From a phage, in sequence record PX969468.1: a DNA stretch of 64,000 nucleotides; one strand, written 5' to 3'. The notes beneath the pieces were generated by a model that was given only the letters and a program-made list of their open reading frames with translations, was not told the origin of the DNA and ran no database searches. Positions 36,465-45,734 of this stretch are shown in pieces (the first letter of the stretch is position 1; each line of letters begins with the position of its first letter). A program made the position numbers and the translations under genes.

Positions 36465-37748
36465 TTATTCCAGCACCTCCCAAGTGTCTGGGTTAACATT
36501 TCGGACGCAGATACCGACAGGGAATTGGTAGTTATTGTCTTCTGTCCTTGCTTGATATTTGAAGGTGACAAACTTGCCGATCATTTCCTGCATTCTGTCA
36601 TAGCTACGCTCCTCGTGCGTACCTTTCATCTTCATTTTAACAACAATACCTTCCTTGTCAACACAGATAAGAACACCTTCATCATTCTTATCTTTCTCAA
36701 CGTCAATAACTTTCACCTCTGCGTCGTTGAACTTTTTCCATTTCAATGCTTCAGATGTTCGCTGACCGTACTCGTATTTACCGCAGAAATTACGCATGAT
36801 AGTACCTTCATATCCTTCGGACATGAATATACCAACAGATTCTTCGCAATGATCAACTGTGTACGCAAGCTCTGCGTCAACAACCTTGATATGGTCAAGC
36901 ATCAGAGTGGTAACGGTATCCTCTGCATCCATAAGATCCTTGCAGCGTCCAGACTCTGTTTCTGGATCCCACCACACCTTGTCGCTAGGAATATCAAAAA
37001 TGTGATACTCCAGATCGTAGCTACAGTACCCACCGTAACGCAAATCATCACGAACAGGCTCAACATCGACAGGAATATCTACCTTGTTGAAGTTTTTGTA
37101 TGTTGATAAGCCTGCCTTAATTGCGGCATGACGGCGTTTTTTATCTGCCTCATAGTCTTTATCGATCTCGGCCTGAATCTCTTCCTGTGTGCGCCACCGT
37201 TTAGCAAGAGACACTATTTTCTGCAAAGGAAGACCATGAATGTATAGTTCCCCATCAAGTTGTTTAATCCCAGTGGTAGAATGGAAAGAACGAAGTTGCT
37301 CTAAAAGCTTTCCTTGAATAGGGTAGGACTTATTACCACGGGAAATAAATTTAGGCTCACCGTTTTGGAAAACAACTAGTAGACGAAGGCCATCTAACTT
37401 ACGCAAGATCCAGCAAGGTAATTTAAGTGCCTTTCCACGCTTCAGGTAGTCATGCACCAGCATGGGTAAAAGGTCAACACCCTGCTCGCAATCTTCCATA
37501 TTTTCAACATACCCCAGACGGACTTGTTTTTCCCACTTACTGATCGCTTCCAGCTCAGCCTGTTGCTCAGCTGTAGTTTCATTGGCACGACCCACGTTCT
37601 TAGGTGTGCAGATCGTCTCTTTGTATTGCAGTTTACCATCAAGCTTGCCAAACTCTACGATAACCTTATCACCATCCGTGAATACTTTCCACTGTTGGTA
37701 GCTGCCATCTTTATTCAGTGCGTACAGTGTTGTTTTGATTTGATGCAT
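36465..37748 (-). CDS. ATP-dependent DNA ligase
   Basis: Nucleotidyltransferase motifs KLDGLR (I), DGELY (III), EGYEGTIMR (IV), LKWKK (V). Confidence 0.65.
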   Translation of the reverse strand: MHQIKTTLYALNKDGSYQQWKVFTDGDKVIVEFGKLDGKLQYKETICTPKNVGRANETTAEQQAELEAISKWEKQVRLGYVENMEDCEQGVDLLPMLVHDYLKRGKALKLPCWILRKLDGLRLLVVFQNGEPKFISRGNKSYPIQGKLLEQLRSFHSTTGIKQLDGELYIHGLPLQKIVSLAKRWRTQEEIQAEIDKDYEADKKRRHAAIKAGLSTYKNFNKVDIPVDVEPVRDDLRYGGYCSYDLEYHIFDIPSDKVWWDPETESGRCKDLMDAEDTVTTLMLDHIKVVDAELAYTVDHCEESVGIFMSEGYEGTIMRNFCGKYEYGQRTSEALKWKKFNDAEVKVIDVEKDKNDEGVLICVDKEGIVVKMKMKGTHEERSYDRMQEMIGKFVTFKYQARTEDNNYQFPVGICVRNVNPDTWEVLE

Positions 37749-42628: not shown

Positions 42629-42700
42629 ACCAGTAAAAACTTAAACATCTGTACTATAAGGATTTGTATGTTTTATGTTCACTCTGGAGCAGAAGTTAGT

Positions 42701-42785
42701 AACTGTCCGTGATACGGACACTACTGTCCGTCACGCGGACACATCTGCCCGTAATACGGACACTAACTGTCCGTGATACGGACAC
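42701..42785 (+). repeat. Four tandem 21-bp direct repeats, each with a 15-bp palindrome GTCCGT-N3-ACGGAC (iteron/operator array)
   Basis: Repeat cores at 42705-42719, 42726-42740, 42747-42761 and 42769-42783; 21-bp period. Confidence 0.7.
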
Positions 42786-42925
42786 ATAAAGAATATAACT
42801 AAAATAACTAAATAATAAAAAATAAAAGATCTAGTACTTATGGTACTAAAGTACATATACTTAACTTATGTAGAATATACTAGATCCTAAGTACCATGTT
42901 TTAAATTTATTACTTATTATGGGTA
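42786..42925 (+). other. AT-rich block with a 9-bp inverted repeat (GATCTAGTA ... TACTAGATC); possible DNA-unwinding element
   Basis: Strongly AT-rich by eye, directly after the iterons. Confidence 0.5.
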
Positions 42926-43160
42926 GTGTCGGCCCTTCATTGGCACTCGCCTACGAGGGGCGAGATGCCGGGCCTCCATAGTGCACACAATAACAGAAGT
43001 GCATACATGCAGGACTGTTAACATGTGTGGGAACGAAGCGATAGCGCAGGCCAAAGGCCGAGCACTAATGTGGACCACCGACGAAAGCTTGCCAGCGCCG
43101 GAAGGAGTCGGTTGAGAGCCTCCCGCGCGAGTTCGGATAAAGTTTATGTGTGGAAACTGA
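42926..43160 (+). other. GC-rich ORF-free segment; candidate structured non-coding RNA
   Basis: No ORF of 60 aa or more in any frame between 42628 and 43290; abrupt rise in GC; multiple stem-forming segments. Confidence 0.35.
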
Positions 43161-43289
43161 CAAGAAGGACCCTAAATCGCTCCACAGCTATATAAACTAT
43201 ACCAAGTAAGGCAATCGCACCAGTTTGATAGAAAAGCTCGTTACAAAGCGATACAGTGAGTTTTTCTATAACTTGAAGAGGAGGCTGCT

Positions 43290-44143: not shown

Positions 44144-44386
44144 ATGTTTAAGGTTAAGCTCGTTTTCCGTTCCATGAATGAGGATTATTTAGAAGATGAA
44201 GGTGAATTTCGTGCACTAGATGATGCAATAGATTTTGCCAACGACTTAGCTTGTATGAATACGGGTTATGGTTTATGTTGTTGGGATGGTGGTGTTCAGA
44301 TTGGTGATAGCAAGATCTTCTACTTCTACCCTGAGCCCGATAACAAACAAATTAAGTATGTTTTATTTATTTGTGCTTTACAATGA
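44144..44386 (+). CDS. hypothetical protein
   Basis: Track ORF. Confidence 0.45.
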   Translation: MFKVKLVFRSMNEDYLEDEGEFRALDDAIDFANDLACMNTGYGLCCWDGGVQIGDSKIFYFYPEPDNKQIKYVLFICALQ

Positions 44387-44399
44387 GGTTGTTTTCGTG

Positions 44400-44720
44400 T
44401 ATCATGATGAATATCCAATTTAAAGATGAGTTTGATGGCTTTATCTCCGGATGCTTTGAAACAGGGTTCGGAGAAGGCTGAGTTACCCTTAGAGGGCTTG
44501 ATAGTGCACCACACTTAAAATGGTAGGGGCAGCCAGCACATGACGATGTGACCCCAGCCAACCTGTAATAAGGTCGAGCCAGAGCGCGGTAATGGGTATC
44601 TGGTAACCCACTCGTTGGGTCTTGTTGGTCCAGGACGCTGGGCAAGTCGCAGGGAACACCACCCTGCGGCGAACTTGACAATCAGTATTTGCCGTGATAA
44701 AATCCACCTATCACGTGATA
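44400..44720 (+). other. GC-rich segment upstream of the tRNA cluster; candidate stable structured RNA
   Basis: Only mutually overlapping ORFs on both strands; GC-rich with hairpins such as CAGGG-aacaccac-CCCTG. Confidence 0.35.
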
Positions 44721-44731
44721 ATGGAGGAAAC

Positions 44732-45070
44732 ATGGCGGATACAACTAAAAAGCGTCGCCGTAGAGGCAGACCTCTGAAAGAGGAGTCCAACGCCATTCAG
44801 CTAGAGAAGAACATTCTTGATATGAAGGAATCTTTTATAGCGATGGTTCCAGAAGCTCACAAAGTTTTAAGAGAGCTGATGTTGGATCCGAAAACCAAGC
44901 AAAATATTCGTCAAAGCATTGCAGAGTATGTCCTTGATAAGGCAGACCGAATGCAGGAAGAATATGATGAGATGTTTGGTGAAGAGGAAGAGGTGGTAGT
45001 AGAAGAGGCTGAAAAACCAGCACCTTTTATGCCATTTACCACAGAGATACAGCCTGTTGGCAATAGTTAA
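44732..45070 (+). CDS. small basic protein with AT-hook-like KKRRRRGRP segment
   Basis: Start moved to the ATG preceded by GGAGG. Confidence 0.5.
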   Translation: MADTTKKRRRRGRPLKEESNAIQLEKNILDMKESFIAMVPEAHKVLRELMLDPKTKQNIRQSIAEYVLDKADRMQEEYDEMFGEEEEVVVEEAEKPAPFMPFTTEIQPVGNS

Positions 45071-45079
45071 AATATTTTC

Positions 45080-45108
45080 TTGACAAACTTTGCTTAACAG
45101 TGTAATAT
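45080..45108 (+). promoter_or_regulatory. sigma70 consensus promoter upstream of the tRNA cluster (TTGACA-17-TAATAT)
   Basis: Perfect -35, 17-bp spacer, near-consensus -10; about 60 nt before the first tRNA. Confidence 0.6.
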
Positions 45109-45166: not shown

Positions 45167-45241
45167 GCCCTGTTAGCTTAGTGGATAAAGCAGCGGCCTT
45201 CTAAGCCGTTGACACTGGTTCGAGTCCAGTACGGGGTGCCA
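45167..45241 (+). tRNA. tRNA-Arg (anticodon TCT)
   Basis: Cloverleaf folded by eye: 7-bp acceptor stem, D-arm GCTT/AAGC, anticodon loop CTTCTAA, T-arm ACTGG-TTCGAGT-CCAGT, encoded CCA. Confidence 0.75.
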
Positions 45242-45635: not shown

Positions 45636-45734
45636 GCTAGGTAAGCCCTTTGGCAAGGGCGAGGATTTTTAATCCTGAAAATAGACGAGGTAGTCGTTGA
45701 ATACATAGGTGGTTCGATTCCATCACCTAGCACC
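45636..45734 (+). tRNA. atypical tRNA-like gene (about 99 nt; Lys TTT-like anticodon loop; about 29-nt extra region); possible pseudogene
   Basis: Perfect 7-bp acceptor (GCTAGGT/ACCTAGC), D-arm, T-arm GGTGG-TTCGATT-CCATC, anticodon loop TTTTTAA with a 4-bp stem; insertion too long for a canonical type I tRNA; no full CCA. Confidence 0.35.

Follow-up and report, generated by a model that had tools for sequence, protein, structure and literature searches.

Why phages carry small stable RNAs has been a question since the 1970s. In T4, rnaC and rnaD (the "species 1 and 2" RNAs) are short non-coding RNAs that are encoded with the phage tRNA genes and presumably co-transcribed with them, and similar stable RNAs have been reported for T5. 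The tRNA clusters of phages are now being reinterpreted as islands of counter-defence and translation maintenance. GOLLD and ROOL, which are phage- and prophage-associated non-coding RNAs, are likewise often found beside tRNA genes (PMC5737381). Here we examine a GC-rich segment at positions 44400–44720 of a 64,000-nucleotide (nt) stretch of phage DNA (record PX969468.1), the whole of which we call the window. An earlier reading of the letters alone (the sequence-only reading) had taken this segment for a non-coding structured RNA, and that central claim is supported: the open reading frames (ORFs) inside it match no protein family searched, its core carries compensatory changes across unrelated phages, and tRNA genes are its neighbors. 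Very probably, the GC-rich stretch specifies a structured RNA that codes for no protein, and we consider it likely that positions 44482–44672 of the + strand encode it. The central ~80 nt of this RNA (44526–44604, + strand) comprise a P1 hairpin, a three-way junction, and a pseudoknot.

Architecture and covariation of the junction domain

The P1 hairpin consists of an outer helix, P1a, in which GGGG (44526–44529) pairs with CCCC (44552–44555), and an optional inner hairpin, P1b, formed within it by CACAU (44537–44541) and AUGUG (44546–44550). The internal loop of P1 also contains a segment that we term X (GCCAG, 44532–44536). The adjoining three-way junction (44557–44597) is closed by P2 (GCC, 44557–44559, with GGU, 44595–44597) and holds two further helices. 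P3 (ACCU, 44561–44564, with AGGU, 44571–44574) is capped by the loop GUAAUA, a member of the family hexaloop GUANNA, and P4 (GC, 44578–44579, with GC, 44586–44587) is a helix of two base pairs (bp) with a variable loop. Three junction strands connect these elements: AA (J2/3), CGA (J3/4), and GGUAAUG (J4/2, 44588–44594). After P2 and a linker of 0–5 nt, the segment X′ (CUGGU, 44600–44604) pairs back with X to form the pseudoknot. In an alignment of 24 distinct sequences, 23 of the 45 core columns are invariant, and the unpaired AA, CGA, and GGUAAUG strands and the GUANNA hexaloop are essentially so.

Folding of the single sequence is unimpressive, and the case for structure must therefore be comparative. 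The + strand has folding z-scores of −2.17 over 44400–44720 and −1.10 over 44482–44672, and the − strand −0.78 and −0.67 over the same intervals. The description of the segment as structured thus fails on thermodynamics alone and stands on compensatory changes. In the core alignment, 97.7% of the cells are paired, as opposed to 91.3% after shuffling (0 of 500 shuffles reach the observed value). All three P2 pairs have changed on both sides; P3 shows one compensatory change, from CCU/AGG to CCA/UGG in the Pseudomonas syringae phage KIL1, and P4 never varies. No covariation between the P3 and P4 loops was seen by eye in this alignment.

The helices outside the junction vary far more freely in sequence. 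P1a is complementary throughout in 13 of 13 representatives, with 10 different sequences; its variants are GGGG/CCCC, GGAAC/GUUCC, GGGAA/UUCCC, GGGAG/CUCCC, UGAAUG/CAUUCA, UGAGUG/CACUCA, UGUGUAU/AUACACA, GGC/GCC, GAGG/CCUC, GUGG/CCAC, and GGAG/CUCC. X and X′ likewise change together from lineage to lineage (GCCAG/CUGGU, UGAGG/CCUCA, GUGAGGG/CCCUUAC, CGGA/UCCG, CGGUU/AGCCG, AAACCA/UGGUUU, and AUAGCAG/UUGCUAU). When the X–X′ partners were shuffled among nine lineages, the observed complementarity was reached in 4 of 20000 permutations.

Because MAFFT misaligned the variable P1 domain in a whole-motif alignment, segments were padded with N to a fixed width, the alignment was registered by hand, and the pairs were then counted. 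In this full model, which includes the pseudoknot, pairing extends to 98.6% of 417 cells, as opposed to 75.8% in shuffled alignments (0 of 500) and at most 47% when the partners are slid along each other; the shuffle control is the meaningful number for an alignment fitted by hand. Fourteen pairs have changed on both sides, among them five in P1a and six in X–X′, and the covariation score is 0.479, compared to 0.134 in the shuffles. Compensatory changes occur in P1, in P2, and in the pseudoknot alike, and they are the covariation support that the sequence-only reading had named as a check. The G-U pairs in P2 and X–X′ would become A-C mismatches on the opposite strand, and the functional strand is therefore the + strand, the same as that of the tRNAs.

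Distribution, genomic setting, and limits of the element

In blastn searches, 119 rV5/FV3-like Vequintavirus genomes match 361 bases around the segment at 97–99% identity, which identifies the source as a coliphage of this kind and not, as had been supposed, a T4-type phage. A sensitive blastn search returned 682 phage records: the 119 rV5-like genomes match at full length, and ~560 T4-like genomes match 44554–44598 only, at 89–95% identity and at an unannotated spot. Exact-pattern scans of IMG/VR and metagenomes uncovered further lineages. Besides the rV5-like and T4-like phages, T4 itself included, the core is present in a group of phages of 46–70 kb, one of which is the N4-like Klebsiella phage Pylas, in phage KIL1 (locus L042; related loci carry L numbers here), in an L119/L117/L110 group related to rV5, and in uncultivated contigs (L007, L008, L054, L085/86, and L130). 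What the lineages have in common amounts to only 45 nt, set between unrelated flanks. The terminase that links L007 and L042 to rV5 is no more than ~36% identical, yet their RNA cores score 58–65 bits against the family covariance model. A 45-nt core that stays nearly identical despite such terminase divergence, and across Escherichia, Klebsiella, and Pseudomonas hosts, points to very strong constraint, probably through contact with a universally conserved cellular component.

The covariance model finds one real match in the window (44555–44599, 69.6 bits); the next best, at 36877–36920 inside an ORF of 427 amino acids (aa), scores 18.9 bits. Each related locus holds exactly one copy. A search of bacterial and archaeal genomes (one per species, 185,579 species) gave four matches, all of them chance matches in GC-rich coding sequence. 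A host-derived sequence was ruled out by blastn against 5,426 E. coli genomes, which gave no match. The RNA family is apparently undescribed and is absent from Rfam 15: the literature searched, which left aside the tables of a bulk viral csRNA catalogue, contains no description of the core sequence or of such a motif. The survey behind that catalogue mined IMG/VR viral contigs for covarying intergenic structures (PMC10690425); its main text presents no motif common to T4-, rV5-, and N4-type phages, and its catalogue tables could list the motif under a serial number.

The motif lies 40–1200 nt from same-strand tRNA genes in 13 loci, namely the window and 12 others (L005, L007, L011, L019/Pylas, L025, L036, L042/KIL1, L086, L108, L115, L119, and L130), and in KIL1 and L115 it is situated between tRNA genes. 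In L105, a unit free of ORFs runs from a promoter (TTGACA-17-TAGATT) through four RNA modules, each enclosed by a long stem, to tRNA-Arg and tRNA-Met; the motif is the second of these modules. L119-type contigs have a near-consensus promoter (TTGACA-16/17-TATACT) that ends 87 nt upstream of the core and would place the transcription start just before a conserved CCCUUAGAGGG hairpin. Intrinsic terminators are found downstream of the motif in L007 (63 nt) and L042 (186 nt). When the ORFs within 5 kb of the motif were compared all against all, no family was common across lineages except the terminase that links L007 and L042 to rV5.

Some of these loci show further features of their own. On the reverse strand of L105, from −235 to +400 relative to the motif, and also in L011 and L019, the module junctions carry a repeat of the form CACAACAGG-stem-CCGUUGUG, and the sequence UGCUCUUUCC looks like the rrn boxA antitermination signal. 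In Klebsiella phage Pylas (L131, MH899585), ~1 kb of unannotated sequence downstream of the tRNA cluster (66769–67776) holds the motif along with additional stem-enclosed modules; among the annotated genes of the cluster is a "tRNA-Pyl" (anticodon CTA) that is likely an amber suppressor.

The T4 copy (NC_000866, ~64857–64901) is located between denV and vs.8, ~6 kb from the tRNA cluster, and in T4-type phages the match starts right after the denV stop codon, upstream of vs.8. NC_000866 annotates vs.8 as a protein of 219 aa starting at an ATG inside P1b, such that a 41-codon N-terminal extension runs through the motif (L144 2358–2413, corresponding to record positions 64857–64912). In 12 of 13 other T4-like loci, the frame of this extension is shut ahead of the core, and the spacing from core to ATG in T4-like loci (95, 96, 97, 103, or 104 nt) shifts by non-multiples of three. 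Given the closed frame and the frame-shifting spacing, the 41 codons annotated at the start of T4 vs.8 are probably an artefact, one that hides the RNA. The conserved start of vs.8 reads MRTFLTGPY, and the protein has Walker A-like (GGRQSGKS) and Walker B-like (ILYIIDEP) motifs; its homologs were found in T4-type genomes only. The motif would thus have been hidden in T4, the best-studied phage, as the N-terminus of vs.8, where it can be tested with existing T4 genetics, as it can in the rV5-like phages of the BASEL collection.

In the window, the element is narrower than the interval 44400–44720 as first delimited. Treated as a single ORF-poor element, that interval is non-coding over ~44482–44672, but a small ORF occupies its 5′ quarter and a promoter its 3′ end. 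The description of it as GC-rich applies only to ~44450–44700 (GC 0.50–0.58) and fails for the AT-rich first 50 nt; GC is 0.29–0.41 at 44350–44450 and ~0.34–0.42 in the flanks. The segment had also been placed directly upstream of the tRNA promoter, which in fact lies at 45080–45108. What the segment abuts is P74 (44675–44703, + strand; TTGACA-17-TAAAAT, 11 of 12 matches with a TG extension), the promoter of ORF74 annotated under that name in the original rV5 record (DQ832317), and this promoter forms the 3′ limit of the non-coding element. ORF74 (44732–45070) matches phrog_3330, and the first tRNA starts at 45167. The rV5 record shows no feature on the stretch between ORF75 and P74.

The ORFs of at least 25 aa within 44400–44720 overlap each other on both strands, as had been described. 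They lie at 44371–44481, 44426–44518, and 44615–45070 (TTG-extended) on the + strand and at 44326–44514, 44367–44681, 44489–44707, and 44515–44796 on the − strand. The four internal − strand ORFs (62–104 aa) match neither Pfam nor PHROGs, and the flanking ORF74 and ORF75 both match PHROGs. No + strand ORF of at least 25 aa covers 44530–44610. A protein-coding frame conserved in homologs, which the sequence-only reading had named as evidence that would overturn it, was not found: the internal ORFs are unmatched, and the vs.8-extension frame is shut in all but one of the 13 other T4-like loci.

The 5′ quarter is a different matter. A 32-aa ORF at 44383–44481 (+ strand; MRLFSCIMMNIQFKDEFDGFISGCFETGFGEG), annotated by other groups, has an ATG that overlaps the ORF75 stop codon (ATGA) and matches phrog_6828 (E 5.5e-9), and this part of the interval is probably coding and outside the RNA element. 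The peptide KDEFDGF within it reappears in L119-type contigs as part of a mini-ORF of 8 codons that has a strong Shine-Dalgarno site. The KDEFDGF codons form a conserved block, AAAGAUGA(A/G)UUUGAUGGCUUU, that occurs within 44383–44481 in rV5-type phages, where it is coupled to ORF75, and at ~4575–4601 in L119; its role could be that of a leader peptide or of an RNA element. A hairpin, UCUCCGGAU...GUUCGGAGA, is predicted at 44444–44475 (+ strand) within the small ORF or leader, in rV5-type phages only. In L111 two of its bases have changed in compensation (C>U and G>A), which alters the encoded residue from Gly to Arg, and L119-type contigs have a promoter in its place. A sigma-70-like promoter candidate at 44377–44405 (+ strand; TTTACA-17-TATCAT, 10 of 12 consensus matches), kept in rV5-type relatives, could start a non-coding transcript near 44412.

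The core is accompanied by modules of narrower distribution. The 5′ module (44486–44525, + strand), a CCC-UUAGA-GGG hairpin (44486–44496) followed by the conserved CUUGAUAGUGCACCACACUUAAAAUGGUA, is specific to Vequintavirinae-type RNAs; it is near-identical in rV5-type and L119-type members despite their different flanks and is absent from other lineages. Three hairpins are predicted on the 3′ side of the rV5-type RNA, at 44606–44620 (ACCCA/UGGGU), 44630–44641 (CCAG/CUGG), and 44648–44668 (CGCAGGG/CCCUGCG), all on the + strand. The first is half-deleted in L126, the second is kept in L119-type contigs with its strands swapped (GCUGG...CCAGC), and the third is absent from those contigs. As judged by sequence comparison, the 3′ hairpins (44606–44668) are lineage-specific accessories.

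Several features of the surrounding DNA deserve mention in their own right. Another GC-rich segment (42920–43190; GC 0.48–0.58), which has overlapping ORFs only and is confined to the 119 rV5-like genomes, might encode a further non-coding RNA, one specific to that lineage. No Rfam family matches it, a 24.6-bit rli43 match beside it being spurious, and it has the 9-mer AUAGUGCAC in common with 44500–44509. A second copy of the motif, or kinship of the motif with this segment, was considered and rejected, given that the covariance model finds one copy and the segment is confined to rV5-like phages. Upstream of it, at 42700–42785, four tandem units of 21–22 nt with the palindrome GTCCGT-nnn-ACGGAC (68–100% identity to the reference copy) look like operators or hairpins. 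At 45636–45734, ARAGORN predicts a tRNA of 99 nt whose anticodon has four bases (atcc) and which scores 35.5 bits against the Rfam tRNA model but is unannotated in the rV5 record; the prediction is repeated in the relatives L106 and L126, and the tRNA could be intron-containing, frameshift-suppressor-like, or degenerate. Finally, 18 GenBank records labeled "Campylobacter phage" (host C. jejuni), including MG065635, MG065644, MG065652-55, MG065662, MG065672, MG065676-77, and MG065690, are 91–98% identical to rV5-like coliphages across both GC-rich segments and are probably mislabelled or contaminant assemblies.

Possible roles of the RNA

The differing downstream genes, the RNA-only operons, and the lack of any co-occurring phage protein favor a stable RNA that acts in trans. 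Such an RNA would be made from non-coding transcription units that usually also carry phage tRNA genes, the rV5-type RNA probably from a promoter near 44377–44405 or by read-through from the ORF75 promoter. Its helices would serve as a freely evolving scaffold for the invariant junction (AA, CGA, GGUAAUG, and the GUANNA loop), which would form a pocket or working surface and bind a partner conserved across Gammaproteobacteria. This partner would most likely be a protein or an RNA from the host's translation or tRNA machinery, or else a nuclease directed against that machinery, and the RNA would act during infection as a stable small decoy, sponge, or cofactor. On the condition that the RNA is functional, a trans-acting binder has in our estimate a little less than an even chance. 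On the same condition, a cis-regulatory aptamer, which would fit the T4 arrangement, is unlikely, and roles of other kinds are unlikely to the same degree; a self-cleaving or processing element, which would fit the multi-RNA operons, is improbable. It is also possible, if doubtful, that the element shared by T4, rV5-like, N4-like, and Pseudomonas phages represents a new class of catalytic or ligand-sensing RNA, or a decoy that neutralizes some conserved factor of the host, for example a defence nuclease that targets tRNAs.

A number of observations weigh against a structured RNA that acts in trans. The 44482–44672 segment does not fold better than its shuffles, 21 of 200 of which fold as well. 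P4 is invariant and P3 is supported by a single compensatory change; since the search patterns required those bases, the true diversity of the family is under-sampled. The X–X′ pseudoknot is weak, with 3 bp, in T4-type phages and in L054. Because the full alignment was fitted manually to the helices being proposed, its percentage of paired cells is inflated, a point that the shuffle and slide controls answer in part. We infer the transcription, stability, and ends of the RNA and the nature of its partner; expression in particular is read, for every member, from promoter-like and terminator-like sites. The T4-type copy is not near tRNAs and instead lies 40–60 nt upstream of the vs.8 start codon, in a riboswitch-like position. 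Neither the ORF comparison near the motif nor the vs.8 homologs revealed a shared neighboring protein or a partner, and the trans-acting mechanism is consequently a guess.

Of the alternatives, the one that survives best is a cis-acting aptamer, that is, a riboswitch or protein-binding leader that would control ORF74 here, vs.8 in T4-type phages, and tRNAs elsewhere, although we regard it as rather unlikely. The combination of a junction that does not vary, helices that covary freely, and a pseudoknot is a fitting design for an aptamer, and in T4-type phages the core starts 95–104 nt before the vs.8 ATG, with a hairpin ahead of the ribosome-binding site. The L007 terminator, 63 nt downstream, is followed by an ORF, and in N4-type members a downstream AGGUUAG could pair with the 5′ strand of P3 in place of P3 itself. 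This alternative pairing is, however, confined to one lineage, and no conserved expression platform was found. The genes downstream are unrelated to each other (ORF74 of phrog_3330, the P-loop protein vs.8, tRNAs, and RNA modules), and in L105 and L042 they are RNA genes only. In the window, moreover, ORF74 is set apart from the motif by a promoter of its own, P74, and the motif matches no Rfam riboswitch.

If the motif were a self-cleaving ribozyme of a new type, or a signal required for processing at which polycistronic tRNA/small-RNA or mRNA precursors are cut, this would account for its presence inside multi-RNA operons that need processing. The element is compact (~80 nt) and has an invariant junction, and its nested pseudoknot has the same strand order as ribozymes of the HDV (hepatitis delta virus) type, of which the theta ribozymes that reportedly sit next to phage tRNAs (PMC10879173) provide a precedent. 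Set against this, no model of the HDV, hammerhead, twister, pistol, or hatchet ribozymes matches, even at E up to 10, and N4-type members have no P3-like hairpin. Nor does the motif adjoin tRNA ends, the nearest being 40 nt away and most 150–700 nt. Together with the differences in the closing pair and the catalytic-C site set out below, these findings make a ribozyme a distinctly improbable explanation.

We give practically no credence to a coding function for the region, as an antisense ORF (72–104 aa) or as the N-terminus of a downstream protein in the manner of the T4 reference: one record does annotate a − strand ORF equal to window 44489–44707, and vs.8 in NC_000866 starts inside the motif, but this reading is largely refuted here by candidate ORFs that match no family, by lineages that share 45 nt between unrelated flanks, by the shut vs.8 frame with its shifting spacing, by the lack of a + strand ORF over the core, and by substitutions that are compensatory in the helices. 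Just as little weight attaches to the idea that the conserved 45 nt act as DNA (a hotspot of recombination or homing, a binding site for a protein, or what is left of a mobile cassette) and that the RNA structure is incidental: an identity above 90% between otherwise unrelated phages does suggest horizontal transfer of a small cassette, and phage tRNA regions and the T4 denV–vs region are plastic, but compensatory changes in P1a, P2, and the pseudoknot, whose strands are 60–70 nt apart, are unexpected for a duplex DNA site, the G-U pairs make the structure strand-specific, and the motif is single copy in each genome without terminal repeats.

For annotation, the consequences are that the antisense "hypothetical proteins" in this region and the start of vs.8 in T4 need correction, and that a covariance model of the motif family would be a useful addition to Rfam.

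Comparison with known RNA classes

The Rfam scan proposed in the sequence-only reading yielded no match at 44400–44720, either at gathering thresholds or at E up to 10. Run on 201 nt, Rfam 15 returned only noise of at most 12 bits from eukaryotic microRNA, long non-coding RNA, and small nucleolar RNA families, and it gave no match on an N4-type member. A tRNA or tRNA-like identity was rejected, as ARAGORN and Rfam find the neighboring tRNAs but nothing at 44400–44720, and the core has no GTTCGAATC-type T-arm. Mimicry of host rRNA was also rejected. The resemblances at issue were GCGGUAAU (16S 527–534), GUAA(C/U)AAGGU (16S 1497–1506), and the GUAAUA loop, which is like 23S H44; they are no better than those of shuffled sequences. 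The longest exact matches to the E. coli rrnB operon are 8–10 nt (CGCGGTAAT, GTAACAAGGT), and shuffled cores give a mean of 9.05 nt, with 26% reaching at least 10 nt. GOLLD and ROOL differ in size (500–800 nt), occur mainly in Firmicutes and others, and are unrelated to the motif in sequence, in keeping with the lack of an Rfam match here.

In topology, the motif resembles the HDV-like and theta ribozymes, whose strand order P1-P2-P3-P1′-P4-P2′ is the same as P1a(5′)-X-P1b-P1a(3′)-junction domain-X′. The resemblance ends there: the defining features are absent, no HDV-type Rfam model matches, and identity with this class was rejected. HDV-like P1 is a helix of 6–7 bp with a G-U pair at the cleavage site, whereas P1a has 3–7 bp and closes with G-C, U-A, or A-U. 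In place of the 3-bp P3 and P1.1, the motif has a P1b of 3–6 bp with a loop of 3–6 nt, which is absent in N4-type members, and no GG follows the 3′ strand of P1a. The catalytic C conserved in J4/2 of HDV-like ribozymes would fall in the linker from the 3′ strand of P2 to X′, which measures 0–5 nt and has no conserved base (AU, U, AUAG, UACA, AAAUA, none, AAGUA, or AAU). The P4 position is dispensable in HDV-like ribozymes, and it is this position that the conserved three-way junction of the motif occupies.

Riboswitch aptamers that combine a three-way junction with a pseudoknot have the same design as the motif: ~80 nt, an invariant junction, and covarying helices. A conserved aptamer supported by covariation is present in the motif as it is in riboswitches, and the T4-type copy is placed like a 5′ untranslated region. 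Riboswitches, however, typically precede related genes and carry an expression platform; the motif has no consistent class of downstream gene, no conserved alternative pairing, and no match to an Rfam riboswitch.

The RNAs of T4 that were introduced at the outset are comparable in kind and in place. A relation by descent to rnaC and rnaD was rejected, as the covariance model (R1) has no match in T4 69000–74500, which holds both genes; the top score in that region, 10 bits, falls within the e.8 coding sequence. The analogy to T4 small stable RNAs drawn in the sequence-only reading therefore holds for the kind of RNA, a non-coding RNA of the tRNA region, and does not extend to homology. rnaC and rnaD lie next to tRNA-Arg in the T4 tRNA cluster, whereas T4 carries its copy of the motif between denV and vs.8. 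In most other lineages the motif resembles rnaC and rnaD in its placement, in or beside the tRNA cluster and on the tRNA strand, and a conserved non-tRNA RNA that travels with tRNA clusters offers a new lead on the small stable RNAs of phages.

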